Source: an uncultured archaeon (GTDB lineage Archaea > Nanobdellota > Nanobdellia > Pacearchaeales > GW2011-AR1). Taken from it: a stretch of 64,000 bases of DNA. Below, one piece after another: positions 1-64,000 of the stretch (positions are counted from its first letter, which is position 1; each line of letters begins with the position of its first letter). The DNA lies in the NCBI GenBank assembly GCA_963845205.1, contig CAWJRC010000004.1, forward strand, positions 105,040-169,039, read 5' to 3'. The translations under genes and the position numbers were made by a program. Below the pieces are notes generated by a model. That model was not told the origin of the DNA. It ran no database searches and was given only the letters and a program-made list of their open reading frames with translations.

Positions 1-1653
1 GAAGTAATAAAAAAAGCTGAAAAGAAAACAGAAGAGATTATTGAATCTTACAATAATGGAACTCTTGAAATAATTCCTGGAAAAACAAAAGAGGAATCAA
101 GAGAAATAAAAATATTGCAGGCATTAAATGAAGTAAGAACCAAGATAGGGGAGATAGTCAAGAAAGAATTCCCTGAAGGTAATCCTGTAAATCATATGAT
201 TAAATCAGGCGGAGGCGGAAATATTTTGAATATTACGCAGATGGCTTCCTGCGTCGGCCAACAGGCATTATGGGGAAGGAGAATTGATTTAGGTTATAAT
301 CAGAGAACAATGTCGTTCTTCAAGCAGGGAGATTTATCTCCTCATTCGAGAGGATTTATCAGAAGTTCGTTCATCAAAGGATTGAGGCCAGATGAATTTT
401 TCTTTGGAGCAGTTACAGGAAGAGACTCACTCATGGATACAGCATTGAGAACTCCGAAATCAGGATATTTGTACAGAAGACTTGCAAACGCTCTGCAGGA
501 CTTGAGAGTTGAATACGACGGAACAATAAGAGACAGCAATAACAATGTTATACAATACAAATACGGCGATGACGGACTTGATGTTTCAAAACTTCATCTT
601 AAAGAACAAATCTCTTCAGGGGAAGCTATTGGAATCATAACTGCACAATCTTTCGGGGAATCATCAACACAAATGACCCTTAATGTATTCCACTTCGCAG
701 GAGTCCAGGAAATGCAGGTTACTTCAGGACTTCCAAGATTGATAGAAATTTTCGATGCAAGAAAAAAACCTTCTTCACCAAAGATGGAAATTTATTTGAA
801 GAAAGAATATAACAACGAAAAAGATGCAAAATCATTTGCTGAAAAAATAAAGGAAGTTACATTAAGGGAAATTGCATCCGAGATAAATTTGAATTTTAGC
901 AGCAAGATGATTGAAATCAAAATCGACAAGAATGCACTAAAACAGACCCATAGTTCGATAAAGACAATTGTTGAAAGACTGAATGATCTTGGATTCGCTG
1001 TAAAGGAAAAAGCCGACGCAATAACATTAAATGCTGCTGAATTTAATTTCAAGGAAATTTATCAGATGAAAGAAAAACTTAAGAAAACAATAATTTCAGG
1101 AATTAAAGGAGTTGCTCAGCTTTTGATTGTCAAGAGAGAAAAAGACTTTGTCATTATTACTCTTGGAACCAACTTGAAAAAGATGATAGCATTAAAAGAA
1201 GTTGATGCTGACAGAACAATTTCAAATGACTTTTATGAAGTTGCGGATATTTTCGGAATAGAAGTTGCGAGACAGCTGCTAATAAATGAAATTTATGAAG
1301 TTTTAAATTCACAAGGAGCAGACATCAATGAAAGGCACCTTAAACTCGTCGCTGATGCAATGACAAACACAGGAGAAGTTAAGGGAGTTACAAGAATGGG
1401 GATCATTGCACAGAAATCTTCAATTTTGGCAAGAGCAACTTTCGAGACTCCAGGAAAACAATTCATCAATGCAACAATAAAGGGAAGCAAGGATAAATTA
1501 ATCAGCGTAATAGAAAACATAATGCTTAATCAGCCGGTTCCTGTCGGAACAGGACTTCCAGGACTTCTAGTCAAAGTCATCGGCCCTTTGGTAAAAGAAG
1601 AATCGGAAAAGAAAACAGCGAAGAAAGAAATTGTTGAAGAGACAAATAAATAA
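1..1653 (+). CDS. rpoA: DNA-directed RNA polymerase largest subunit Rpo1 (A'/A'' region), 5'-partial; bridge helix and trigger loop in one continuous frame
   Basis: Frame open from nt 1 (ORF track starts at internal TTG/Met 115). Funnel motif NITQMASCVGQQ, bridge helix RGFIRSSFIKGLRPDEFFFGAVTGRDSLMDTALRT, YGDDGLD and trigger loop AQSFGESSTQMTLNVFHFAG are all in frame. Confidence 0.85.
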   Translation, partial: EVIKKAEKKTEEIIESYNNGTLEIIPGKTKEESREIKILQALNEVRTKIGEIVKKEFPEGNPVNHMIKSGGGGNILNITQMASCVGQQALWGRRIDLGYNQRTMSFFKQGDLSPHSRGFIRSSFIKGLRPDEFFFGAVTGRDSLMDTALRTPKSGYLYRRLANALQDLRVEYDGTIRDSNNNVIQYKYGDDGLDVSKLHLKEQISSGEAIGIITAQSFGESSTQMTLNVFHFAGVQEMQVTSGLPRLIEIFDARKKPSSPKMEIYLKKEYNNEKDAKSFAEKIKEVTLREIASEINLNFSSKMIEIKIDKNALKQTHSSIKTIVERLNDLGFAVKEKADAITLNAAEFNFKEIYQMKEKLKKTIISGIKGVAQLLIVKREKDFVIITLGTNLKKMIALKEVDADRTISNDFYEVADIFGIEVARQLLINEIYEVLNSQGADINERHLKLVADAMTNTGEVKGVTRMGIIAQKSSILARATFETPGKQFINATIKGSKDKLISVIENIMLNQPVPVGTGLPGLLVKVIGPLVKEESEKKTAKKEIVEETNK

Positions 1654-7974: not shown

Positions 7975-8709
7975 TTAGAAACTAATCCTCTTAATTACTC
8001 CTAACTTAATTCCATAATCTGAAACATCTTTACCGTATGTTTCACTAAAAAAACCTAAACCGAAATATAAATTATCTTCGGGATTTCCCACATAAATTGA
8101 TGCAGAAAATTTATCCCCCCATCCTTCATAAAGTTCTTTGGGATTTCCGAGAGGAACGCTGTAATTTTTTCCATTAACAACATTTACTCCCTGATAATCC
8201 TGTTCAACGATTTGATAATACTCTTTTGAATATTCTGCATTAAGCAAAACATAATGGTTGAATAGATCCAGATTGGCAGAAATTCCAATTGGAGGATATT
8301 TGACAATATCAATTTCTTCAAGCTTAACAGGATCCCACCAGTTTAAGTTTATAGTTTCAAGACCAGTTGAAGGAAAATTTATTCCTAAACGAGGGCCTAT
8401 TGAAAAGTAATCTCCTAATCTTATTTTTAGAGACAGTCCTGCTTCAAAATTTGCACAAGTTCCTGAAGGGGAGTAATTCAATGAGTTATCTCCGTATGCA
8501 GGATCCCAGCAAAGAGGCTGAAAATTGTTTTGCCAACCATCATATGCTTTTACCTCGTGATTATATGTTTGCGGACCTGCTTCTGCTATTGCATCGATGT
8601 CGAACTCAAAAAGACTGTCCTGAGCATGAATATTATTCATATTAAGAGAAAGAGCAATAGCCGGAACCAAAGCCAGCTTCATTATATTCGAAACCAGTCC
8701 GCTTCCCAT
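7975..8709 (-). CDS. secreted β-strand-rich protein with C-terminal aromatic residue (RISF)
   Basis: N-terminal signal peptide; alternating amphipathic strands; ends in Phe. Confidence 0.5.
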   Translation of the reverse strand: MGSGLVSNIMKLALVPAIALSLNMNNIHAQDSLFEFDIDAIAEAGPQTYNHEVKAYDGWQNNFQPLCWDPAYGDNSLNYSPSGTCANFEAGLSLKIRLGDYFSIGPRLGINFPSTGLETINLNWWDPVKLEEIDIVKYPPIGISANLDLFNHYVLLNAEYSKEYYQIVEQDYQGVNVVNGKNYSVPLGNPKELYEGWGDKFSASIYVGNPEDNLYFGLGFFSETYGKDVSDYGIKLGVIKRISF

Positions 8710-8954: not shown

Positions 8955-9515
8955 ATGATACTAAGAAAAGAGATGACTAAGATTGAAATCGAAAAAGAAT
9001 TAAATCGTCAGGGAGATTACGTCCAGATCGATACTATAACAAGATTTCTCAAAGAAAACCCAGCAATGGACTTAAAAAAATTTCTTTATACAAAATTAAC
9101 AGAAATTTATGAAAGAAGAAACATGTTCATAGATGAAGCCGAGGTTTACAACAGGTTAATTGATATTGCTTTAACTCCTTCGGAAAAGGTTAATTGTTTG
9201 GTAAAGGCAACTGAATGCTATATAAAAGCAGGAGTTTTTGACAAAGCAGACCTGATGATGAGCAAAGTTACAGGACAGGTAAAAGAGCTTGAAAGAAGGA
9301 AAATAGTGAATTCAATCATTGAATTCTATAAAAAACAAGCGCTTGTTTATGAAAAGGAAAAAAGAAGGAACAGAGCAGTAAAAACTTATGAAAAAATTCT
9401 TTCAATGAATATTCTTGACTCAGAAAAAAAAGAAGTTAAACAAAGGCTAGTAAAATTATATCAGGAACTCGGAATGGTAGGGGAATATATGAAAATTAAG
9501 GGCGAATCTGAGTGA
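8955..9515 (+). CDS. hypothetical protein
   Basis: 186-aa ORF, helical, no recognisable motif. Confidence 0.4.
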   Translation: MILRKEMTKIEIEKELNRQGDYVQIDTITRFLKENPAMDLKKFLYTKLTEIYERRNMFIDEAEVYNRLIDIALTPSEKVNCLVKATECYIKAGVFDKADLMMSKVTGQVKELERRKIVNSIIEFYKKQALVYEKEKRRNRAVKTYEKILSMNILDSEKKEVKQRLVKLYQELGMVGEYMKIKGESE

Positions 9516-9614
9516 GGGCATCCACTTGACAGCAATTTTATCTCAAATTAATTTGACAGAAAGATTTATATACTACCATATATCACCATATTACATGGAG
9601 TTACAAAATGGAAA

Positions 9615-9782
9615 ATGACAAAGATACAAATAGACTTAGACGAGGAAGAAGACAAGATTGTAGAGATATACAAATTAGTAAACAATCTAAAGACAAAGGA
9701 GCAGGCAATTAAAATAATGGTAAAATATTTTAAGGCAGAAGTTAAACCTAAGAATCTAAAAGATAAGGAGTATTTTAAATAA
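9615..9782 (+). CDS. small putative ribbon-helix-helix-like DNA-binding protein (55 aa)
   Basis: MTKIQIDLDEEEDKIVEIYKLVNNLKTKEQAIKIMVKYF: β-strand then two helices, RHH/antitoxin-like; stop overlaps start of next gene (taaaATG). Confidence 0.4.
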   Translation: MTKIQIDLDEEEDKIVEIYKLVNNLKTKEQAIKIMVKYFKAEVKPKNLKDKEYFK

Positions 9783-9783
9783 A

Positions 9784-10530
9784 ATGATAGATATAACGGG
9801 AAAACAAGATGCAATTGCTATAAAAGAAGAATATCAAAAAGCATTGAATTATACCCATGAAGAAGTTAAGAAAAAAGTAGAATGGCTTTATGGAATGAAT
9901 CATAAATTAAAAGATAATCTTGCATTAGCCCAGAAATATAAAAAAGACCTTGTTGCAGATGAAGAAGCCAAGGATAAGGAATATGCTAATTTGAATAACC
10001 TCTTGATAAAAGAAACAAATTTTGAGAAAGAAATGTTAAAAACTTCTCAAAAAGGAAAGAAATCTTCCATAACTAAAATTAAACCAAAATTCAAAGATGT
10101 AGATGAAGTTAGATTTAATGCGATGCAAGATTATCTTGACAAATATCCTGAATATGCTTCTAAATCAAGTTTTAAAAAAATATTAGATAAAATAAGTGAA
10201 GTTGAAAAAGGAATTAAAGATACAAAGAAAAATTATAATCGTTCTGTTTCAGAAGTTTTGAGAGAAATCTCTTATTGGTCAAGGAATTATATGGAAGCAG
10301 AGAATCTTGTCAAAAAATTTAAAGAACAGATTAAAGAAGCAAAAGAGAAATTAAGTAAAATGAGATATTTACGAAGTATTGCATATAAGTTAGCAAGTGA
10401 AAAAGAAAAAATGAAAGTAAATATCCATACTCTTTATTATCGAATAGATGAAATGGAAGATACAATTAGAAAATTAAATGAAGAATATGAAAAAGCAAGA
10501 AGACAAGATTTAGAAGAGATGGAATATTAA
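9784..10530 (+). CDS. K/E-rich coiled-coil protein, function unknown
   Basis: 248 aa, heptad-rich; followed immediately by 58-nt repeat copy A. Confidence 0.45.
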   Translation: MIDITGKQDAIAIKEEYQKALNYTHEEVKKKVEWLYGMNHKLKDNLALAQKYKKDLVADEEAKDKEYANLNNLLIKETNFEKEMLKTSQKGKKSSITKIKPKFKDVDEVRFNAMQDYLDKYPEYASKSSFKKILDKISEVEKGIKDTKKNYNRSVSEVLREISYWSRNYMEAENLVKKFKEQIKEAKEKLSKMRYLRSIAYKLASEKEKMKVNIHTLYYRIDEMEDTIRKLNEEYEKARRQDLEEMEY

Positions 10531-10534
10531 TAAA

Positions 10535-10592
10535 AAAAGCCACACCTCTTAACACCATTATCCAAGCCACGAATACTTAACACTCTCAATCT
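10535..10592 (+). repeat. ~58-nt repeat copy A (two tandem AAGCCAC-N-CTTAACAC sub-units) directly 3' of stop codon
   Basis: ~90% identical to the reverse complement of 61124..61181. Confidence 0.7.
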
Positions 10593-10775
10593 GAGTAAGA
10601 TTTAAAAACCTTCTTTAGTTTTGATATTTGAGAAATGTCTATTAGATTATAAATTATATTCATATTCATATCACATTTCCTGTTCATTTTTTAAGGAAAG
10701 TAGAGTAGTTCGTAACTTTAGATATTTCTTGGAATCATAGATTTCAGACAAAATTAAATTTAAGGAAAGAAAAAA

Positions 10776-11921
10776 ATGGCAAAAGTAAGTCCGGTATCAA
10801 TAAAATATATGATACATGCAAATTTCTCAGCAGAGGGATCTCTGGAGAAGCCTGACGTAATCGGAGCTGTATTTGGACAGACAGAAGGGCTTTTAGGAGC
10901 TGAACTTGAGATGAGAGAACTGCAAAAAGAAGGAAAAATAGGAAGAATTGAAGTTGATTTGCATAAAGAAGGCAAAAGAACTGTGGGAGTTATAAAAATC
11001 CCTACTGCCTTGGATCAGAGTGAGACGACTTTGATTGCCGCTGCAATTGAAACAATAGAAAGAATAGGGCCTTGCGATTCACAAATCTCAGTTGAAAGAA
11101 TTGAAGATGTAAGAGGAAGCAAGAGAGATTATATTGTTGAAAGAGCAAAGAAATTGATGCAGGAAATTAAGGGTAAAACCGATTCAAGAGAAATTTCTGC
11201 AGAAATAAAGGATTCTACAAGAATCGCAGGAATCAAAGAATACGGAGAGAATAAGTTGCCTTGCGGAGATATATCAGGAAAAGAACTGATTGTTGTTGAA
11301 GGAAGAGCAGATGTTGTCAATCTGATAAGAAACGGAGTAAATAATGTTATCGGGATGAACGGAACAAAACTTCCTGATGAAATCAGGGAATTAGGGAAGG
11401 AAAAAGAAATAACATTGTTTGTAGATGGCGACAGAGGCGGAAAACTCATTGCACAGAACGTAGTTGAAAATGCAAATATTGCATACATTGCTACTGCTCC
11501 TGACGGAAAAGAAGTCGAGGAATTAGCAGGCAAAGAGATCTTGATGAACTTAAGGAAAAAAGTTCCTGTTAAGGAATTTTTTTCCGGTTCTCAGGACCGA
11601 AATAGAACCATAGAAAAGAAAGTAGAAGAAGAATTTGAGTTAAGCATTGACAGAAAAAATAAACTTAAAGAAATTTCAAAAAAGAATGAAGGAAGCGGAA
11701 AAGCTATTCTTCTTAATAATTCTCTGAATGAAATAAAAAGCATTTCAGTAAAAAGTCTTGCAGGAACCTTGCATAGAATAAGAGACAGACCAACAGCAGT
11801 TGTTATTGACGGAACAGCAACAGTTTCTATCATAAGTACATTAGAGGAAATTAACTGCAAGGTTATTGTAGCGAAGAATTTCGCAACAACAGACACAAAG
11901 ATTAAATTATTGAGTTTGTAA
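10776..11921 (+). CDS. dnaG: archaeal DnaG-type primase (TOPRIM)
   Basis: N-terminal KYMIHANF...VIGAVFGQTEGLLG; TOPRIM EGRAD and DGDRGG. Confidence 0.9.
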   Translation: MAKVSPVSIKYMIHANFSAEGSLEKPDVIGAVFGQTEGLLGAELEMRELQKEGKIGRIEVDLHKEGKRTVGVIKIPTALDQSETTLIAAAIETIERIGPCDSQISVERIEDVRGSKRDYIVERAKKLMQEIKGKTDSREISAEIKDSTRIAGIKEYGENKLPCGDISGKELIVVEGRADVVNLIRNGVNNVIGMNGTKLPDEIRELGKEKEITLFVDGDRGGKLIAQNVVENANIAYIATAPDGKEVEELAGKEILMNLRKKVPVKEFFSGSQDRNRTIEKKVEEEFELSIDRKNKLKEISKKNEGSGKAILLNNSLNEIKSISVKSLAGTLHRIRDRPTAVVIDGTATVSIISTLEEINCKVIVAKNFATTDTKIKLLSL

Positions 11922-56555: not shown

Positions 56556-57431
56556 ATGAAAAATAAGAGGGGGCAATTTTTCATTATTGCTGCAATAATC
56601 ATAATAACAGTGATAATAAGCATTGTAACTGTCTCGAATTACAGCCAGCCGAAACAGACAACAAAACTTTATGATCTTGGACAGGAACTGGGAATTGAAA
56701 GCCAGCAGGTTCTTGATTACGGAACATACAACGAGCTAAACGATACTGAGATGCAATCACTAATGGAAAATTTCATCCAGAATTATGTAAGCTACATGGG
56801 AGGAAAAAGGAATATTTATTTCGTGTTCGGAAACGCGCAGGTCATTGACGTTGTCGGTTATCAAGAGTTATTAAACGAAAGCGTCTGCATAACATTAAAT
56901 CCTGTAACTCATGTTTGCGGGGACGGAACTGCAATAGCAGGAGAGGGATGCGATGTAAACACAAGCATATTCGGGGATATAGGATGCGCAGGCGACTGCC
57001 AGCTTGAACAGCCCGGATGCAATATTTCTGCTGCTTCAAATGAAACAGTAAATGAATCAACAGTAAATCCCGGAGAATACTGCGACGGAAATAATATGAG
57101 CGGGCTCAACTGCACTTCATTCGGATTTGACGAACCTGCAAGCGAACCTCAGGGACAGACAGCACTTCAATGCACTGCACAATGCGGATTTGACACTTCC
57201 GGATGCGTAATTCCACAGCCGCAGAATCAGCCAGAATGCCAGAACCTCACTGTCCTCGGACAGCCGCAATCACCTCAGCAATTTCCAGAAGAAAACGGTG
57301 CAATTTCAAAAGTAGCGATAAACCTTGCAGGAAACCAGTATGAATTCGCGCTCAAGCCCGGAGAAAATTTCTATTTTGTAATCTGGGAAACAGAAAACGG
57401 AGAAAAAAATGTTATTACAAGCCCGCAATAA
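56556..57431 (+). CDS. secreted Cys-rich protein with class III (type IV pilin-like) signal peptide
   Basis: MKNKRGQFFIIAAIIIITVIISIV; 20+ Cys in C-terminal half. Confidence 0.5.
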   Translation: MKNKRGQFFIIAAIIIITVIISIVTVSNYSQPKQTTKLYDLGQELGIESQQVLDYGTYNELNDTEMQSLMENFIQNYVSYMGGKRNIYFVFGNAQVIDVVGYQELLNESVCITLNPVTHVCGDGTAIAGEGCDVNTSIFGDIGCAGDCQLEQPGCNISAASNETVNESTVNPGEYCDGNNMSGLNCTSFGFDEPASEPQGQTALQCTAQCGFDTSGCVIPQPQNQPECQNLTVLGQPQSPQQFPEENGAISKVAINLAGNQYEFALKPGENFYFVIWETENGEKNVITSPQ

Positions 57432-57951
57432 AAAAGGACTCAGCGAAGTCATTGGATACATTCTGCTAGTCGCGGTTTCGATAACAATAAGTGTGCTCGT
57501 ATACCAATGGCTTGTAACATATGTCCCATCGCAGTCGCTTCAGTGCGATGACGGAACTTCTTTTTTTGTAAAAGATTTTTCCTATGACTGCACAAACCAG
57601 ATATTAAACATAACCCTGGAAAATAACGGAAAGTTCAGCATTGAAGGATATTTTATTCATGCTTCAAACAACAGCGACACCAGCCAGCTTGCAACAATAG
57701 ATTTATCACAGAAAGTTCTTAATTACAGCGGAGCATATCCGTACGGAAATTCTGTAATATTCTCGCAGCTTGTAAACAATGAACTGGCTCCTGACGCAAC
57801 AGGAATAAAACTCCATGTCTTCAATGTATCGGGATACGGAAACCTTAGCAAGATAGAGCTTATACCGACGAGAATACAGGATGTTCAGGGAAAAACAGTT
57901 TTAGTAACATGCACTGATTCAGAGGTTACAGAACTGCTTACATGCAACTGA
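57409..57951 (+). CDS. archaeal type IV pilin-like protein (pilin_N class III signal)
   Basis: ARNKKGLSEVIGYILLVAVSITISVLVY. Confidence 0.7.
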   Translation: MLLQARNKKGLSEVIGYILLVAVSITISVLVYQWLVTYVPSQSLQCDDGTSFFVKDFSYDCTNQILNITLENNGKFSIEGYFIHASNNSDTSQLATIDLSQKVLNYSGAYPYGNSVIFSQLVNNELAPDATGIKLHVFNVSGYGNLSKIELIPTRIQDVQGKTVLVTCTDSEVTELLTCN

Positions 57952-57989
57952 ACAGAAAGGATTTAAAATAGAAGGATATTAATATTAAA

Positions 57990-58475
57990 ATGGCAAGAAG
58001 GAGTGTGATAAAAAAGAAAGGGCTTTCCCCTGTAATAACAACAGTTCTTTTGATTGCTCTGGTCGTTGTAATAGTTTCTATAATTTTCTTATGGTTTAGG
58101 GGAATGGTGCAGGAAGGAGTCACAAAATTCGGGAAGAACATAAATCTGGTATGCGATGATGTAAAGTTCGACGCAACATATGCGGCAGGAACCTTAAGTG
58201 TAGTCAATACAGGAAACATTCCGATATTCAGAATCGAGATAAGAATTTCAAACAATGGAAATTTCGTGACAGAAGACATTATGAACACAAGTGCAGGAAG
58301 CAGCTGGCCTTCCGGAGGGCTGGGGCAGGGAGCAACTTTCTCAGGAAACATACAGAGTGATATCGGAAGCGCAAATGACATTCTTATAATACCCGAACTT
58401 ATAGGAACATCACCCAGCGGAAAAGAAACTTTAATATGCGGAGGACAGTATGGAAAGGATATCACGATCTCGTAA
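57990..58475 (+). CDS. archaeal type IV pilin-like protein
   Basis: KKKGLSPVITTVLLIALVVVIVSIIFLWF. Confidence 0.7.
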   Translation: MARRSVIKKKGLSPVITTVLLIALVVVIVSIIFLWFRGMVQEGVTKFGKNINLVCDDVKFDATYAAGTLSVVNTGNIPIFRIEIRISNNGNFVTEDIMNTSAGSSWPSGGLGQGATFSGNIQSDIGSANDILIIPELIGTSPSGKETLICGGQYGKDITIS

Positions 58476-58977
58476 AAAGGGGCTGTCTGAAGTTGTAACA
58501 ACAGTAATTCTCATCGCAATAAGCCTCGCTGCAATCGTAATTGTCTGGGCTTTTGTGAATACATTCATAACCAAACAGGTAAGCAGCAGCGAATCATGCT
58601 ACGGAAATTACAACCAGGTAAAAATCAACGGGCAGTACACCTGCCTTAATACTTTATCAGGGGGCCAGTACAGCTTTAACTTTTCCATGACAATCGGGGA
58701 CATCAGCGTCGATAAAGTTCTTGTCTCAGTATCAGCAGGAGGAGCAGTCAACACATACACGATCACAAACACACCGCAGAACCTTTCGGGGATAACAATG
58801 GAAAACGGAAGCAGCGAAGTTGTTCTTCCAGGAAAAAATTCAGGATTGACTTATTATTTAACAGGATTTTCAAGCCCTGTTGATTCTGTACAAATCGCAC
58901 CGGTCATCGGAGGAAACCTCTGCTCGGTTTCTGATACACTTGCTGAAATCTATGACTGCTCAATCAGCGCCGAGTAA
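58450..58977 (+). CDS. archaeal type IV pilin-like protein
   Basis: SRKKGLSEVVTTVILIAISLAAIVIVWAFV. Confidence 0.7.
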   Translation: MERISRSRKKGLSEVVTTVILIAISLAAIVIVWAFVNTFITKQVSSSESCYGNYNQVKINGQYTCLNTLSGGQYSFNFSMTIGDISVDKVLVSVSAGGAVNTYTITNTPQNLSGITMENGSSEVVLPGKNSGLTYYLTGFSSPVDSVQIAPVIGGNLCSVSDTLAEIYDCSISAE

Positions 58978-59016
58978 AAGAATTAATTATTTAAATTAAA
59001 TTTTACTTGTACATTC

Positions 59017-59538
59017 ATGAATAAAAGAGGGCAGGTCTGGATTGAAACAGTAATTTATACTCTAATCGCTTTTGTAATGATAGGGCTTGTCCTTTCTTTC
59101 GCCCAGCCGAAAATACAGCAGCTGCAGGACCAGGCAGTAGTGCAGCAGTCAATCAACTTACTGACCCAGATTGACTCAACAATAAACACGCTAGGCGGCG
59201 AAGGGAATTTAAGAATAGTCGAGCTGGGGATCAAGCAGGGGGAACTTAATATCGACGGCGTAAATGACCTTATCAGTTTTGACATGAACACCCAGAGCGC
59301 GTACAGCGAGCCGGGGAAAAACATCAGCAACGGAGATATACTGATCGACACAGAAAAATACAACAGCGAATACAAAGTGACCCTGACGATAAATTACCAG
59401 CAGGATTATGACATAGAATTCAACGGAGCAAATGCTCTGCAGACCCTCACTGCCGCTTCGACGCCCTATGAACTGACAATAGCAAATGCAGGAGAGGACG
59501 CTGAAAACAGAACAATACTAAACATGTCTCTTAGCTAA
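59017..59538 (+). CDS. class III signal peptide (pilin-like) protein
   Basis: MNKRGQVWIETVIYTLIAFVMIGLVLSFA. Confidence 0.6.
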   Translation: MNKRGQVWIETVIYTLIAFVMIGLVLSFAQPKIQQLQDQAVVQQSINLLTQIDSTINTLGGEGNLRIVELGIKQGELNIDGVNDLISFDMNTQSAYSEPGKNISNGDILIDTEKYNSEYKVTLTINYQQDYDIEFNGANALQTLTAASTPYELTIANAGEDAENRTILNMSLS

Positions 59539-59546
59539 ATAAAAAA

Positions 59547-61097
59547 ATGGATAATATTGAAGATTACGAAAAAGTAAAAATAGACTTTCATCCGAAGACG
59601 CCTTTGCTTGAAAGAATAGAAGACAAATCGCAGATTGATATCAGATACTGCCTTATCGCGCCGTTCGCATTTGTCCACATTTACTGGGATGCGAAAATCT
59701 ACGAGCTCGTTTATGAAATCGAAGAGCCGATACTTACAGAGCAGGAAAAATCCTCAAGAGACCAACTCACTTCAGCGATAAGAGACCTTATAAATTTTGA
59801 AGGAGTCGTGGAAAAAAATGAGGACACGCTTTTGGAATACATTGACAAGAGGCTTAAAATTCTCGCGGTAGAATTCGGAATGGACATACCTTATGAATCT
59901 TACAAAAAAATATATTATTATCTCTGCAGGGATTTCATCGGGATAAACGAGATAGAGCCCATAATAAGAGATTATTTTGTCGAGGATATAGAATGCAACG
60001 GGATCAACAGCCCAGTCTACATAATACACCGACTTTACAGAAGCATAAAGACGAATGTCAATTTCACGAGCATGGACAGCATCGAGAGTTTTGTAGAAAA
60101 ACTCGCGCAGAGATGCGGGAAGCATATATCCTACGCAAATCCGATTCTCGACGGAAGCCTGCCGGACGGAAGCAGAGTCAATGCTACATATACAACAGAT
60201 ATAACCAGCAAGGGGCCGACATTCACAATAAGAAAGTTCACAAAAACTCCATGGACTCCTATACAACTTCTTTCATTCAAAACACTCAGCCCCGAGATGC
60301 TCGCATATCTCTGGATCCTTATACAGTACAAGATGAATATTTTAGTGACAGGGGGAACAGCTTCGGGAAAAACGACGCTGCTTAATGCCATCGCTTTTTT
60401 CATACCTCCGGAAGCAAGAGTTGTAAGCATTGAGGATACGAGAGAACTAAATCTGCCTAGGGAAAACTGGCTTCCTAGCGTCACGAGAGAATCGACAGAA
60501 AACAGAAGAGAAAATGAAATAACATTATTCACTCTTTTGAGAAGTTCTTTCAGACAGAATCCAGATTATGTAATTGTCGGTGAAGTAAGAGGAAGAGAGG
60601 CGTCTGTCCTTTTCCAGGGAATGGCTTCGGGGCACTCATCGCTGAGCACAATGCACGCTGATTCGGTCGAGACACTGATAAAAAGACTTGAAACTCCGCC
60701 GATAGAACTTTCTCCGACGCTATTGAATGTTCTTGACTGCGTCTGCATCATGACGCACGCGATAGTAGGAAACCAGGAGACAAGAAAATTAAGGGAGATA
60801 GTCGAGATAGTAAATGTAAATCTCGACGGAACCGCAATAATAAACACTCCCTTCACATGGAGTCCCGCAGACGACAGATTTTATTTCAAGGGCGGCGAAA
60901 GAGTTTTTGAAAAAATTGTTAGAAGATACGGGATAAGAATGGAAGAGCTTGAAGCTGAATTCAGAAAAAGATCACAGATAATATATGAAATGTCAAAAAG
61001 GGGAATTTCAAAATTTGAAGAGGTTCAGGAATTAGTAAACCAGTATTACAAAAGGCCAAACGAAGTACTCAAGCAGTTCGGGATCGAACAAATTTAA
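59547..61097 (+). CDS. type IV pilus/archaellum-type secretion ATPase (FlaI/PilB/TadA family)
   Basis: Walker A TGGTASGKTTLLNA, Asp box, GEVRGREA, His box. Confidence 0.85.
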   Translation: MDNIEDYEKVKIDFHPKTPLLERIEDKSQIDIRYCLIAPFAFVHIYWDAKIYELVYEIEEPILTEQEKSSRDQLTSAIRDLINFEGVVEKNEDTLLEYIDKRLKILAVEFGMDIPYESYKKIYYYLCRDFIGINEIEPIIRDYFVEDIECNGINSPVYIIHRLYRSIKTNVNFTSMDSIESFVEKLAQRCGKHISYANPILDGSLPDGSRVNATYTTDITSKGPTFTIRKFTKTPWTPIQLLSFKTLSPEMLAYLWILIQYKMNILVTGGTASGKTTLLNAIAFFIPPEARVVSIEDTRELNLPRENWLPSVTRESTENRRENEITLFTLLRSSFRQNPDYVIVGEVRGREASVLFQGMASGHSSLSTMHADSVETLIKRLETPPIELSPTLLNVLDCVCIMTHAIVGNQETRKLREIVEIVNVNLDGTAIINTPFTWSPADDRFYFKGGERVFEKIVRRYGIRMEELEAEFRKRSQIIYEMSKRGISKFEEVQELVNQYYKRPNEVLKQFGIEQI

Positions 61098-61123
61098 TTT
61101 TCATATTCTAAAATTTTATTCAC

Positions 61124-61181
61124 ATGTGAGAGTGTTAAGTATTCGTGGCTTGAATGATGCTGTTAAGTAGCGTGGCTTTTT
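61124..61181 (-). repeat. ~58-nt repeat copy B (inverted relative to copy A), directly 3' of stop of 61185..62267
   Basis: reverse complement aaaaagccacgctacttaacagcatcattcaagccacgaatacttaacactctca matches 10535..10592 with ~6 mismatches. Confidence 0.7.
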
Positions 61182-61184
61182 AAC

Positions 61185-62267
61185 TTACTTTCCAGATTTG
61201 ATACGATTATCGTGTTTACATAGCATCTGACAATTTTCAGCAGTAGTTTTCCCACCCTTACTCCACGGGTCTATATGGTCTCCTTCCATTTCTTCTATTT
61301 CAAAATGCTTCTTACATTTTGGACAAATGCCTTTTTGTCTTTGGTATGCTTCTCTTTTTTGGTTAGATGTAAACTCACGAAGATTAAGGTATTTTTCATC
61401 TCTTGTTAAAATATAGGGAAAAATACCTGACTTCTTTTCAACTTCATCATCCTGCATTAATTTTGCTATTTCTTTGTCTATTGCTTTTGAGTTAAACTCT
61501 TTATCTTTAAATTTATTGTATAAAGTCCCAAAGTCTACTCCTTTCATTTCTTTATAGTAAGTGGAAAAAATTGCTTTTATCCAACTTATAACACTTTGAA
61601 AATATAACCATAATTCATTTGCATTAGGTTTATCCTGATTTTTAGCCATATATCCCTCTATCTTTCCATTACTAATCCAGCTAATCGCAGTTTCTAAATA
61701 ATCTTGGCGAATTGGAACTCCTGTTAGATAATCCTTTGCCATGTTATATGCTGGGCAACCTGTTTTACTAAAATGCCTTTTTGCGTCAGTTAGCCAAGTT
61801 CCTGTATAAATAGCATTTCTTAATTCTTGGTCGGTTAATTTTACTCCTGCAATATTTATTATTTTAAACCAATCCAACTTTTCTTTATCTTTTCCTTCAC
61901 AGAAATAAATCATCAATTTGTAATTTAGAATTTTCTCTTTTTCGTCATTTGTAAGATTATGAAAATATTTGAAATCTAATGCAAACTTTCCATCAACATA
62001 TTCACAAAAACTTATTGTCCTTTGCTGTCCATCCATTACTTCAAAAGTCCCATCTTCATTTTTAACCCAATACATCACATTTAAAGGAAAACTTTTGTTT
62101 ATTGTTTCAATTACAGCATCTCGCTGTTTATCTTTATAGATAAATTCTCTTTGATATTTTGGACGGATGTTTAATTTTCCTTTATACCCAATAACTCCTT
62201 CTTCTTCATCATTTTTGTATCCTTCTACGACATCTTTAATTGGTATTTGTTTAAGCTCTATTTTCAT
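61185..62267 (-). CDS. DUF262 (ParB/GmrS-like, DGQQR) + C-terminal HNH nuclease protein
   Basis: VMDGQQRTISF; C-terminal CPKC...DHIDPWSKGG...N...LC..CN HNH motif. Confidence 0.75.
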   Translation of the reverse strand: MKIELKQIPIKDVVEGYKNDEEEGVIGYKGKLNIRPKYQREFIYKDKQRDAVIETINKSFPLNVMYWVKNEDGTFEVMDGQQRTISFCEYVDGKFALDFKYFHNLTNDEKEKILNYKLMIYFCEGKDKEKLDWFKIINIAGVKLTDQELRNAIYTGTWLTDAKRHFSKTGCPAYNMAKDYLTGVPIRQDYLETAISWISNGKIEGYMAKNQDKPNANELWLYFQSVISWIKAIFSTYYKEMKGVDFGTLYNKFKDKEFNSKAIDKEIAKLMQDDEVEKKSGIFPYILTRDEKYLNLREFTSNQKREAYQRQKGICPKCKKHFEIEEMEGDHIDPWSKGGKTTAENCQMLCKHDNRIKSGK

Positions 62268-62291
62268 AGAATAATATCCAAAAAGAATTAT

Positions 62292-63257
62292 TTAAACATT
62301 CTTATTCTTTATTAGAATACGGACATATTTCTCTTTATCTTCTCCTTCAATAATTCCCCTATGCCTATGTTCTGGGTCTTTCCTTAGAGATTCAACTTCT
62401 GGAGATTTATCTCCACTATGGGTCTGCCCAATTATCTCAAATTGTTCTGGGTTATATTTATCTAAAAAAGTTAATGGAACTCCCATTACTCCTTTATAAT
62501 CTATTGGAATATCACTTACTTTATCAACATTTATAGCATTATAATTTTTATATTTAGGATAATCTTTTGGATTATATTTTTTGTAAAGAATTAAATTTTC
62601 GTGTCTTTTCTTATTGTCCAAATTGGTTAACCATACAATTGTCCCCATACTAAAGAATTTAGTCCCATTTTCTATTTTCTTTCTTGATTCCGTGGTTATA
62701 TCATAGTGTTCTGGAACTTTAAACCATTTTGTCCCACCATTATCAATTCCTAACCAAATTTTATTTTTTTTGATAAATTCAAAAGTATCTTTATTAGTGA
62801 GAGCATTTTGGTTTCCAATAATTAAAAACTTTTTATTGTATTTCATTAATTGAGCGATATATTCTCTAAATAAAGAGAAGGGCGGATTCGTAACAACAAT
62901 ATCAGATTTTTTTAATATTTCTATACATTCAGGGCTTCTAAAATCTCCATTTTGTTTCAAGGGAGTTTTTATTGTATTTCCATTAGTCTTTTCTAATTTA
63001 TAAGATGGTTTTTTGGTTTCAAAGTGTGTTGCTATTAATTTTTTTAATCCAAGAAATTTAAAATTTAAAGCAAAGTATTTCCAAAAGTTACTTTCTTCTG
63101 GGTCATCGCAATTAAGAAAAATAATTTTATTTTTGAAATGTTCTTTATAATGTCCTAACTCTTTTTCAATATCTGTAAGATTGGTATAAAAATCATCATT
63201 CTTAGCTACATTTGCCTTATGTAAACTTTTATTTAGGGTTTTCTTTTCCATTTCCAT
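62292..63257 (-). CDS. putative N6-adenine DNA methyltransferase (DxFYT...NPPF motifs, EcoRI-methylase-like)
   Basis: NDDFYTNLTD, IVVTNPPFSLFREY; overlaps upstream ORF by 29 nt. Confidence 0.55.
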   Translation of the reverse strand: MEMEKKTLNKSLHKANVAKNDDFYTNLTDIEKELGHYKEHFKNKIIFLNCDDPEESNFWKYFALNFKFLGLKKLIATHFETKKPSYKLEKTNGNTIKTPLKQNGDFRSPECIEILKKSDIVVTNPPFSLFREYIAQLMKYNKKFLIIGNQNALTNKDTFEFIKKNKIWLGIDNGGTKWFKVPEHYDITTESRKKIENGTKFFSMGTIVWLTNLDNKKRHENLILYKKYNPKDYPKYKNYNAINVDKVSDIPIDYKGVMGVPLTFLDKYNPEQFEIIGQTHSGDKSPEVESLRKDPEHRHRGIIEGEDKEKYVRILIKNKNV

Positions 63258-64000
63258 TTTTATTATTCATTTTTATGTCTGCCAAGACAGATAATTTACC
63301 TTTCTTTTCCAAATAACTTTTTAAATATTCCAAAAATTCTTTTGAATTTGCAAAATAATTAAGATATGCTTTTTTTAATTCTTCTACAGATTTTGCACCA
63401 ACAAGAACAACATCTTTATCTGGATTTCCCCCTCTCAATTTTTCTGCTTCAAGATAATGCTCTGATGCAAGAGATTCTGCTCCTTCGGGATAACCTCTAA
63501 TACTTAATTTTGCATTAGTCTCTTCCGATATATCTAATTCAAGTAAAAAGAAATCCAATTTTTTAAGTTCTGGTTCTATTATTCTTAACATTTCTGACCA
63601 ATTTTTCATTTTTGAGAATATTTTTAATTTATCTACTTTTTCTTTAATTGCTCTATATAGTTCATCGTCATCGGTTGGTGTTCCTTCTACTTCTTTTTGA
63701 TTTTCCATTTTTGCAAATGCTGAACTGACTAATTTAAAAAACTCTTTCCATTCTTCTTCACCTTCATTAGATTTAATTGCCTGTTTTGTAAATAAATCAA
63801 CTATTTCTATTGCAGTAGCCCATGCATGCTGTATCTTGCTTCTAATCTGAATTTCAATAAGTAAGCCGTCATATGTTTTTATCTTATCACTTTTATATCT
63901 ATAGATTAGGTGTATACTTCTATATCCATCTCCTTTAGGATTTTTTATATAATCCTTTTCCCTTATCCTCTTATGTTTTAATCCACGACTTTTCTTATAA
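63229..64000 (-). CDS. RelA/SpoT-homologue synthetase-domain protein (small-alarmone-synthetase/toxSAS-like) with ~200-aa C-terminal extension; 5'-partial (runs off window)
   Basis: Frame open beyond ORF-track Met to window end: ...DYIKNPKGDGYRSIHLIYRYK...GLLIEIQIRSKIQHAWATAIE matches RSH motifs DYI.PK..GY.S.H and EIQIRT...WAE. Confidence 0.65.
   Translation of the reverse strand, partial: YKKSRGLKHKRIREKDYIKNPKGDGYRSIHLIYRYKSDKIKTYDGLLIEIQIRSKIQHAWATAIEIVDLFTKQAIKSNEGEEEWKEFFKLVSSAFAKMENQKEVEGTPTDDDELYRAIKEKVDKLKIFSKMKNWSEMLRIIEPELKKLDFFLLELDISEETNAKLSIRGYPEGAESLASEHYLEAEKLRGGNPDKDVVLVGAKSVEELKKAYLNYFANSKEFLEYLKSYLEKKGKLSVLADIKMNNKNGNGKENPK

Follow-up and report, generated by a model that had tools for sequence, protein, structure and literature searches.

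In the 64-kb window analysed here (i.e., the whole stretch of DNA, which is AT-rich and archaeal and encodes EF-2, EF-1alpha, a DnaG-like Toprim protein and tRNAs), the same short repeat occurs twice in inverted orientation, each time directly behind the stop codon of a gene, which raises the question as to what this repeat is and how it came to lie there. A sequence-only reading had described a 58-nt element with about six mismatches between its copies, and had offered three explanations, namely an element associated with the 3'-UTR or a terminator, two paired sites for protein binding, or a miniature repeat family. Alignment revealed two mutually inverted copies at the positions reported, designated A (10535–10587) and B (61128–61181), with 6 differences over ~55 nt. 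Their terminal 25-mer, AAGCCACGAATACTTAACACTCTCA, is identical and occurs twice in the window at up to 3 mismatches, compared with 0.00 occurrences expected from 100 shuffles. Each copy was said to share the orientation of its upstream gene and to start within 3–5 nt of the stop codon, and this was also observed: copy A begins 4 nt past the stop of 9784..10530 and copy B 3 nt past the stop of 61185..62267. The two sub-units described for each copy, AAGCCAC-N4/5-CTTAACA, were located at 10537–10554 and 10564–10582 in copy A, and at 61161–61178 and 61133–61151 in copy B. The lone 19-nt unit is not enriched in the window (9 occurrences at up to 3 mismatches versus 5.9 expected), and only the two exact pairs count. 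The outer boundary of the repeat, set from related elements, is the C of CTCTC, located at 10587 in copy A and at 61128, on the other strand, in copy B. The last 5 nt of the 58-nt extent described earlier (10588–10592) therefore belong to a 9-bp target duplication, AATCTGAGT. Both copies match the profile of the family that is described below, with nhmmer E values of 2.4e-15 for copy A and 6.3e-15 for copy B.

10535..10587, minus strand: copy A, a cargo-side ('tight') terminal inverted repeat (TIR), reading inward as GAGAG-TGTTAAGTATTCGTGGCTT-GGATAATGG-TGTTAAGAGGTGTGGCTT-TTT, with its outer terminus at 10587.
61128..61181, plus strand: copy B, the cargo-side ('tight') TIR of a second element, reading inward on the plus strand, with its outer terminus at 61128.

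Further copies, which the sequence-only reading had suggested looking for, exist beyond the window. A degenerate pattern that spans one and a half units matched 15 contigs among 185,579 species genomes, 14 of them from MAGs of Pacearchaeota, Woesearchaeota and Nanoarchaeota, and a second pattern matched 84 metagenome contigs, while an exact-pattern scan of viral contigs found no repeat copy. With a distribution over about 100 contigs of Pacearchaeota, Woesearchaeota and Nanoarchaeota, the repeat is therefore conserved and lineage-specific, and is no local duplication. The architecture of copy A, with sub-repeats of 18–19 bp, recurs in 80 unique ends; in the alignments, the conservation of three of the four boxes is partly imposed by the search patterns. 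Only 8 of the 84 metagenome matches have 30 nt or less outside the terminus, a count from which no claim about contig breaks is drawn.

A profile search of the fetched loci revealed, at 13 loci, a second end that is inverted, more diverged and differently spaced, located 1.9–7.4 kb from the first. The first, or tight, end consists of two TGTTAAG-N4/5-GTGGCTT units that are 8–9 nt apart, and the second, or wide, end has the two boxes of the tight end with a large gap between them. Read inward, the wide end is GAGAGTGTTAGG-AATTA-GTGGCTT, ~21 nt, GTTAAG-TTC-GTGGCTT-TTT, with the general form GAGAGTGTTAGG-N5-GTGGCTT, ~21 nt, GTTAAG-N3-GTGGCTT, and on the opposite strand it would read AAGCCAC-N3-CTTAAC...CCTAACACTCTC. 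The ends measure 53–65 bp and are asymmetric, with two sub-repeats each. Thirteen complete elements of 1.9–7.4 kb were delimited, and their order is wide end, a transposase gene that reads outward, 0.5–6 kb of cargo and tight end. The 9 nt outside both termini are identical in eight of twelve complete elements and match at 8 of 9 positions in one more (P = 4e-4 for random 9-mers from the loci reaching a match of at least 8/9); the duplication is absent in three (L094, L101 and L007). Locus L107, which was found via its transposase instead of the repeat, carries the duplication TGGTCTATA on both sides, with the TATA box TATTTAAG 4 nt away, a gene ATG 21 nt further and the variant GAGTGG/GGGTGG in its sub-repeats. 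The inverted second end, the transposase and the 9-bp duplications therefore identify these structures as transposons that produce a 9-bp target-site duplication. Members of the IS6/IS26 family transpose through cointegrates and form compound structures with direct IS copies at their flanks; the structures visible here are static, and they are unit transposons bounded by inverted ends.

We conclude, with a probability of roughly 90%, that each repeat copy in the window is the transposase-distal, cargo-side TIR of a DPANN-specific family of DDE transposons. Two of the earlier proposals hold in part. There is a repeat family, as had been suggested, but its members are the TIRs of 1–7 kb cargo-carrying transposons and not a free-standing miniature element. 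The idea of a protein-binding site pair is probably right in spirit, given that the sub-units recur, respaced, in the other end of the element, where they would likewise be expected to bind the transposase.

Several irregularities were observed among the related loci. In L101 (118–7497), the inverted repeat runs ~27 nt past the GAGAG termini (CAAATAAGAACTAAAA(A)CAAGAGAG on each side) and is accompanied by no direct duplication, and a similar outward extension of 7 nt, TGAAAAC, occurs in L020. An end variant in which GGGAG replaces GTGGCTT (e.g., GAGAGAGTTAAGTTTTTGGGAGATGATTAAATTGTTAAGTATCGGGAGG) was found in L068 (~520–590, minus strand), L052, L019 (9815–9850) and L089 (13191–13233), often directly after the inner edge of a tight end, a placement that points to a sister family inserting in tandem or in nested fashion. 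When L107–L109 (11.8–17.7 kb) were compared with the near-identical L110, L113 and L114, a block of ~6 kb differed; it encodes a DDE_Tnp_1 (IS4-like) transposase and a type I restriction–modification (R-M) system, and forms a polymorphic defence island adjoining the element.

Eleven of the 13 elements encode a conserved protein of 362–421 aa (typically 411–421 aa) that abuts the wide end, its gene reading outward and stopping inside the wide end, ~15 nt from the terminus. This transposase is composed of an N-terminal SWIM zinc finger, a zinc ribbon, a helix-turn-helix and an IS6-type DDE(K) core. Pfam analysis identified SWIM and DDE_Tnp_IS240 (E 2.7e-8), and the NCBIfam IS6 profile NF033587 was matched over positions 7–202 of 202 (E 3e-28), with a score of 98.9 bits that lies below the curated cut-off of 125; weaker profile matches were obtained for IS66 and IS256. 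BLASTP comparison with the IS26 transposase Tnp26 yielded 24% identity over all of Tnp26 (E 1e-8); the Tnp26 sequence used shows 100% identity with annotated IS26 transposases. Eleven family members are invariant in the D, D, E and K residues and in the helix-turn-helix, which align with those of Tnp26. A sequence search of the PDB with the transposase returned nothing significant, the best match being a Mutator-family transposase at E 0.16. At 90% identity, 394 transposase clusters were found, named only as DDE-type integrase/transposase/recombinase of Nanoarchaeota, Pacearchaeota and unclassified archaea. The profile and alignment matches indicate that the transposase is homologous to IS6 but lies outside the curated family boundary. 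The family termini, GAGAGTGTTA with the variants GGCAGTGTTA, GGTTCTGTTA and GGTGCTGTTA, resemble the IS26 inverted repeat GGCACTGTTG of an annotated plasmid copy, a likeness that covers the first 10 nt.

Within the 64 kb themselves, tblastn found no transposase of this family and nhmmer found none of its usual transposase-side (wide) ends. Copies A and B differ in their flanks and cargo, in addition to the 6 differences between the repeats, and judged by these features they are ends of two independent insertions. The two copies were also considered as borders of a single 50-kb element; this was rejected, as core genes (dnaG-like, tRNAs) lie between them and both cargo sides face outward.

The insertion that ends in copy A, element A, spans 9514–10587 (1,074 bp) and is bounded on both sides by the exact 9-mer AATCTGAGT, with the following features:

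9505..9513, plus strand: left copy of the target-site duplication AATCTGAGT, overlapping the last codons of the 186-aa ORF 8955..9515.
9514..9570, plus strand: the other end of element A, GAGGGCATC-CACTTGACAGCAATTTTATCTC-AAATTAA-TTTGACAG.
9615..10530, plus strand: cargo of element A, a 55-aa ORF (9615–9782) and a 248-aa coiled-coil ORF (9784–10530), co-oriented.
10588..10596, plus strand: right copy of the target-site duplication AATCTGAGT, identical to the 9-mer at 9505–9513.
10601..10608, plus strand: TATA-like box TTTAAAAA in the flanking chromosome, 4 nt past the duplication, the presumed promoter of the dnaG-like gene 10776..11921.

Removing 9514–10596 leaves ...GAATCTGAGTAA, in which the TAA stop of the 186-aa ORF is restored at the same codon; the pre-insertion (empty) site is inferred as ...GAATCTGAGTAAGATTTAAAAA and reconstructed as GGCGAATCTGAGTAAGATTTAAAAACC. 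Taken by itself, a 9-mer match within 10 kb has a chance of ~5%. The left end of element A shows no similarity to the usual ends of the family, its alignment score being under the shuffle mean. Nevertheless, three other loci (L020, L042 and L065) contain the 22-mer CACTTGACAGCAATTTTATCTC with TTGACA downstream of it, adjacent to family ends or TATA boxes, and this recurrence supports 9514 as the other end of element A. The motif CACTTGACAGCAATTTTATCTC-N6-8-TTTGACA lies at 9514–9570 in the window, ~868–905 in L020, ~4880–4936 in L042 and ~143–190 in L065, with CCCTT preceding it in three loci, and in L020, L042 and L065 it was observed at the spacing of TATA box, 4 nt and 9 nt. It is paired with a tight end in the window and in L020, where the motif and the tight end enclose a single 166-aa gene in ~700 bp and the pair has no matching duplication. 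Copy A is thus likely to be the tight end of a transposase-less cassette that uses an alternative second end, and cassettes such as element A may have been moved in trans. GC content drops to 0.29 in the cargo, whose ORFs match no Pfam family above threshold and have no homologue in the other loci. To the left, between EF-1alpha and the TPR-like 186-aa ORF, a gene on the minus strand (7975–8709), opposite to its neighbours, encodes a protein of 244 aa whose N terminus resembles a signal peptide and which matches no Pfam family, and GC content falls from there to ~11000.

Element B begins with copy B at 61128 and runs beyond the end of the window at 64000:

61119..61127, plus strand: the 9 nt outside copy B, TTCACATGT, the expected target duplication, whose partner is expected past the window end.
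61185..64000, minus strand: cargo of element B (Pfam, tblastn).
61185–62267, minus strand: DUF262/GmrSD_N-HNH nuclease (Pfam).
62292–63257, minus strand: EcoRI-like adenine methylase (Pfam).
63292 to beyond 64000, minus strand: RelA/SpoT-like gene, cut by the window end.

The complete element in L069 contains the same three cargo genes (tblastn). Its RelA/SpoT-like protein, which carries a RelA_SpoT domain, aligns through residues 118–355 to 63292–63999 with 76% identity, and in L045 a nuclease and a methylase that are 81% and 75% identical lie beside the transposase. Extrapolating from L069 and L045, we expect the transposase and the other end of element B to be located past 64000. The 159-aa ORF 63229..63708 is only the C-terminal part of the longer RelA/SpoT-like gene, which stays in frame to the window end. 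There is no good TATA box next to copy B. Its insertion lies directly past the last gene of a locus (56556–61097) that resembles those for archaeal type IV pili or archaellum-like structures: several small proteins, clustered at 57409–59538 and carrying hydrophobic, pilin-like segments at their N termini, are followed there by a T2SSE-family ATPase (59547–61097). Searches by exact proteins (the 186-aa ORF, the DnaG-like protein, the methylase, the HNH protein and the T2SSE-family ATPase) yielded no empty site for insertion A or B and no continuation of the contig, only contigs with the same insertion or nothing on record.

The genes upstream of both copies had been regarded as accessory-looking, and both are indeed transposon cargo. 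Across the family, R-M and other defence genes make up most of the cargo, located between the transposase and the tight end; it includes type I, II and III R-M systems, D12 and EcoRI-like methylases, and HNH and PLD nucleases, as well as a RelA/SpoT-like protein, a DUF488 protein, an ORC/CDC6-like ATPase and small DNA-binding proteins. The last cargo gene usually faces the tight end and stops a few nucleotides short of it. The repeat lies just after a stop codon because the cargo genes are packed tightly against the transposon end.

Outside the elements, the flanks share a further feature. Counted from the terminus, the 79 unique flanks show T-T-T-W-T-A-A-A at positions -21 to -14, and 55 of them have a T at position -11. 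At 38 ends, the distance between the terminus and a TATA-like 8-mer is exactly 13 nt, i.e., 4 nt plus the 9-bp duplication, compared with 0–7 ends at unrelated offsets, and the counts at offsets neighbouring 13 nt are explained by overlapping T-runs. In a stricter test, the 13-nt spacing was present in 39 of 68 unique ends with enough flank (39–42/68 overall; ~60%), and ~40% of ends, including copy B, have no TATA box there. Measured from the first conserved box, the TATA-like box is exactly 17 nt away in most copies. A TATA box can also lie 13 nt outside a wide end, as in L069, L084, L005 and L007, and the 9-bp duplication of L005 is placed symmetrically between two TATA boxes with a separation of 17 bp. 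At 12 of the ends with the 13-nt spacing, an outward ORF of at least 50 aa starts with an ATG 21–22 nt past the TATA box, which is the spacing expected for leaderless archaeal mRNAs. In the flanks of L003–L017, L018–L101 and L107, many gene ATGs likewise lie exactly 21–22 nt after an 8-bp TATA box, and this distance implies mostly leaderless mRNAs in these DPANN contigs.

The neighbouring gene keeps its promoter, because 13 bp of original sequence (9 + 4) stay upstream of the TATA box, and insertion near a TATA box would provide a safe site for integration in a genome nearly devoid of intergenic DNA. It could be argued that the fixed distance reflects survivorship, i.e., the persistence only of those insertions that spared genes and promoters. 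In the loci that offer complete elements or long contigs, coding density is high and the gap between genes is often hardly longer than a promoter; the ~40% of ends that are not beside a TATA box also fit such an account. Selection, however, should permit a range of positions, whereas the observed offset is sharp (38 ends at 13 nt against 0–7 elsewhere); furthermore, the TATA box is faced at the same spacing by either end, which together with the symmetric boxes of L005 looks like recognition by the transposition complex. On this evidence survivorship appears unlikely, and we consider the TATA placement to be probably a product of active targeting. In its most extended and tentative form, active targeting would make these the first archaeal 'promoter-homing' DNA transposons: the complex might read the TATA box directly, or through DNA bent by TBP/TFB, and insert 4 bp upstream, so that defence cargo would be delivered to the only safe spaces and no leaderless neighbour silenced, with transposase-less cassettes served in trans. 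As a class the transposon is ordinary; the precision of its TATA-adjacent placement is unusual for a prokaryotic transposon.

The position of the TATA box also bears on an alternative in which the repeat is a small RNA gene opposite the upstream gene, with its own TATA promoter 17 nt upstream, an oligo-T terminator and a 3' end that serves as an integration hotspot in the manner of tRNA genes. The TATA box at a fixed distance in most copies, the GTGGCTTTTT in which the repeat ends on that strand, the irregular weak hairpin shared by many copies and the clustering of defence (R-M) genes on the oligo-T side would all agree with such a gene. The 9-bp duplication, however, lies between the repeat and the TATA box, and the TATA box therefore belongs to the target and not to the element; moreover, it is missing there in ~40% of copies, copy B among them, and the predicted start site would sit inside the first conserved box. 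The structure and covariation proposed as a check gave no support, since neither strand folds better than its shuffles (z +0.3 to +1.0 on both strands) and the stem positions never co-vary. Rfam returned only tRNAs and chance matches (gathering threshold for the whole window; E up to 10 for 10450–10780). Finally, an inverted partner end and a transposase accompany the repeat. A small RNA gene is accordingly very improbable, and was dropped on the grounds of the inverted partner ends, the 9-bp duplications before the TATA box and the shuffle-level folding.

On the other strand, a 3'-UTR or transcription terminator of the upstream accessory genes, as the sequence-only reading had envisaged, would account for a start 3–4 nt past the stop in the gene's own orientation, which is seen in both window copies and several other loci. 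Archaeal termination needs oligo-T, however, and within the element the gene's sense strand carries an A-run and no oligo-T; this strand is essentially unstructured (MFE 0 and -1.5 kcal/mol), and its folding scores and the Rfam result given above are equally unfavourable. The upstream genes are mutually unrelated across loci, and tightly packed cargo explains the position, which reduces this interpretation to a practically negligible probability. Hardly more credible are recombination sites (att/attC-like) of a site-specific recombinase, or integron-like cassettes in which gene and site move together. The order of gene followed by repeat is cassette-like, and tandem or close repeats exist in L019, L042, L052 and L068, but the gene linked to the elements encodes a DDE transposase, with no linked tyrosine or serine recombinase; the direct repeats are 9 bp and variable, as is typical of staggered-cut transposition, in place of a conserved crossover core; and the repeat is made of direct sub-repeats that form no hairpin, whereas attC is an imperfect palindrome.

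Returning to the reading of the repeats as transposon ends, a working mechanism can be proposed. Transposase subunits would bind the two sub-repeats of each end, which are predicted binding sites, pair the ends and cut at the GAGAG termini; the ends would then be joined to target DNA cut with a 9-bp stagger, producing the 9-bp duplication, the preferred target being 4 bp away from an archaeal TATA box, on its far side as seen from the gene.

DPANN genomes are tiny and dense, and gene acquisition and exchange in these archaea are poorly understood. The family appears to be a main vehicle of R-M and other defence genes in Pacearchaeota, Woesearchaeota and Nanoarchaeota, and it seems to be undescribed, no account of it having been found in a literature search of incomplete coverage. 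Its boundaries are recognisable from sequence, so that cargo can be catalogued and strain-variable islands explained, and the repeat is flagged as a likely cause of contig breaks. In addition, the insertions provide a map of real promoters and leaderless starts (TATA box plus 21–22 nt to the ATG) in uncultured archaea. If active targeting is true, the family would offer a testable DNA transposon that reads the archaeal core promoter.

With regard to promoter-proximal insertion, the closest parallels are LTR retrotransposons, which are tethered by transcription factors; Ty3 inserts at Pol III start sites and Tf1 at Pol II promoters. The likeness consists of a fixed short distance from the core promoter with the coding sequence spared. 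In contrast to Ty3 and Tf1, the elements described here are DNA transposons, and tethering by TBP/TFB is a hypothesis only, with direct sequence recognition being equally possible. Mobile insertion cassettes (MICs) consist of transposon ends that flank passenger genes, with no transposase, and element A and the ~700-bp element of L020 resemble these and other non-autonomous IS derivatives in having ends around 1–2 passenger genes and no transposase. Unlike MICs, their second end is a different motif, CACTTGACAGCAATTTTATCTC...TTTGACA, rather than the usual transposase-side end. Element A also differs from a MITE (less than ~0.5 kb, non-coding, with both ends of the parent IS and a target duplication): it is flanked by the duplication, but it measures 1,074 bp, contains two ORFs and has a differing second end.

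The ends of Tn7 and Mu are functionally asymmetric and contain several directly repeated transposase-binding sites. The family described here resembles Tn7-like and Mu-like elements in its asymmetric ends, with multiple direct-repeat sub-sites (putative binding sites) packed in one end and spread in the other, and in the use of a 'safe' insertion site whose position is fixed with respect to a feature that is recognised. Tn7-like elements also carry defence-gene cargo (PMC8649781). Unlike Tn7 and Mu, the DPANN family has a single IS6-type DDE protein and no homologue of TnsA/B/C or MuA/MuB, its duplication is 9 bp instead of 5 bp, and its target is a generic promoter element instead of one conserved gene.

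The most extensive comparison is with the IS6/IS26 family (IS26, IS257, IS6100; archaeal clade A). The core of the DPANN transposase matches the IS6 profile end to end and aligns with Tnp26 over the helix-turn-helix and D-D-E-K, and the termini of the DPANN family start with G-R-N-N-N-TGTT, comparable to the IS26 repeat GGCACTGTTGCAAA. Members of IS6 measure 0.7–0.9 kb and have 14–20-bp near-perfect inverted repeats and 8-bp duplications, some bacterial members likewise carry an extra N-terminal zinc finger, a single passenger gene occurs in only one known member, and the archaeal members are the smallest (PMC7986276). The DPANN elements, in contrast to the 0.7–0.9 kb, single-ORF IS6 elements, extend over 1.9–7.4 kb with 1–6 cargo genes and up to ~6 kb of cargo; their ends are 53–65 bp long and asymmetric, with two sub-repeats, as opposed to near-perfect repeats of 14–20 bp; their duplication is 9 bp instead of 8 bp (8/12 complete elements, one more at 8/9, L107 and element A of the window); their transposase, with its SWIM finger and zinc ribbon, is ~180 aa longer; and, unlike IS6, they insert next to TATA boxes. 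Based on the transposase and the terminal nucleotides, IS6/IS26 is nevertheless the closest family, to which these DPANN transposons appear to be distantly related.
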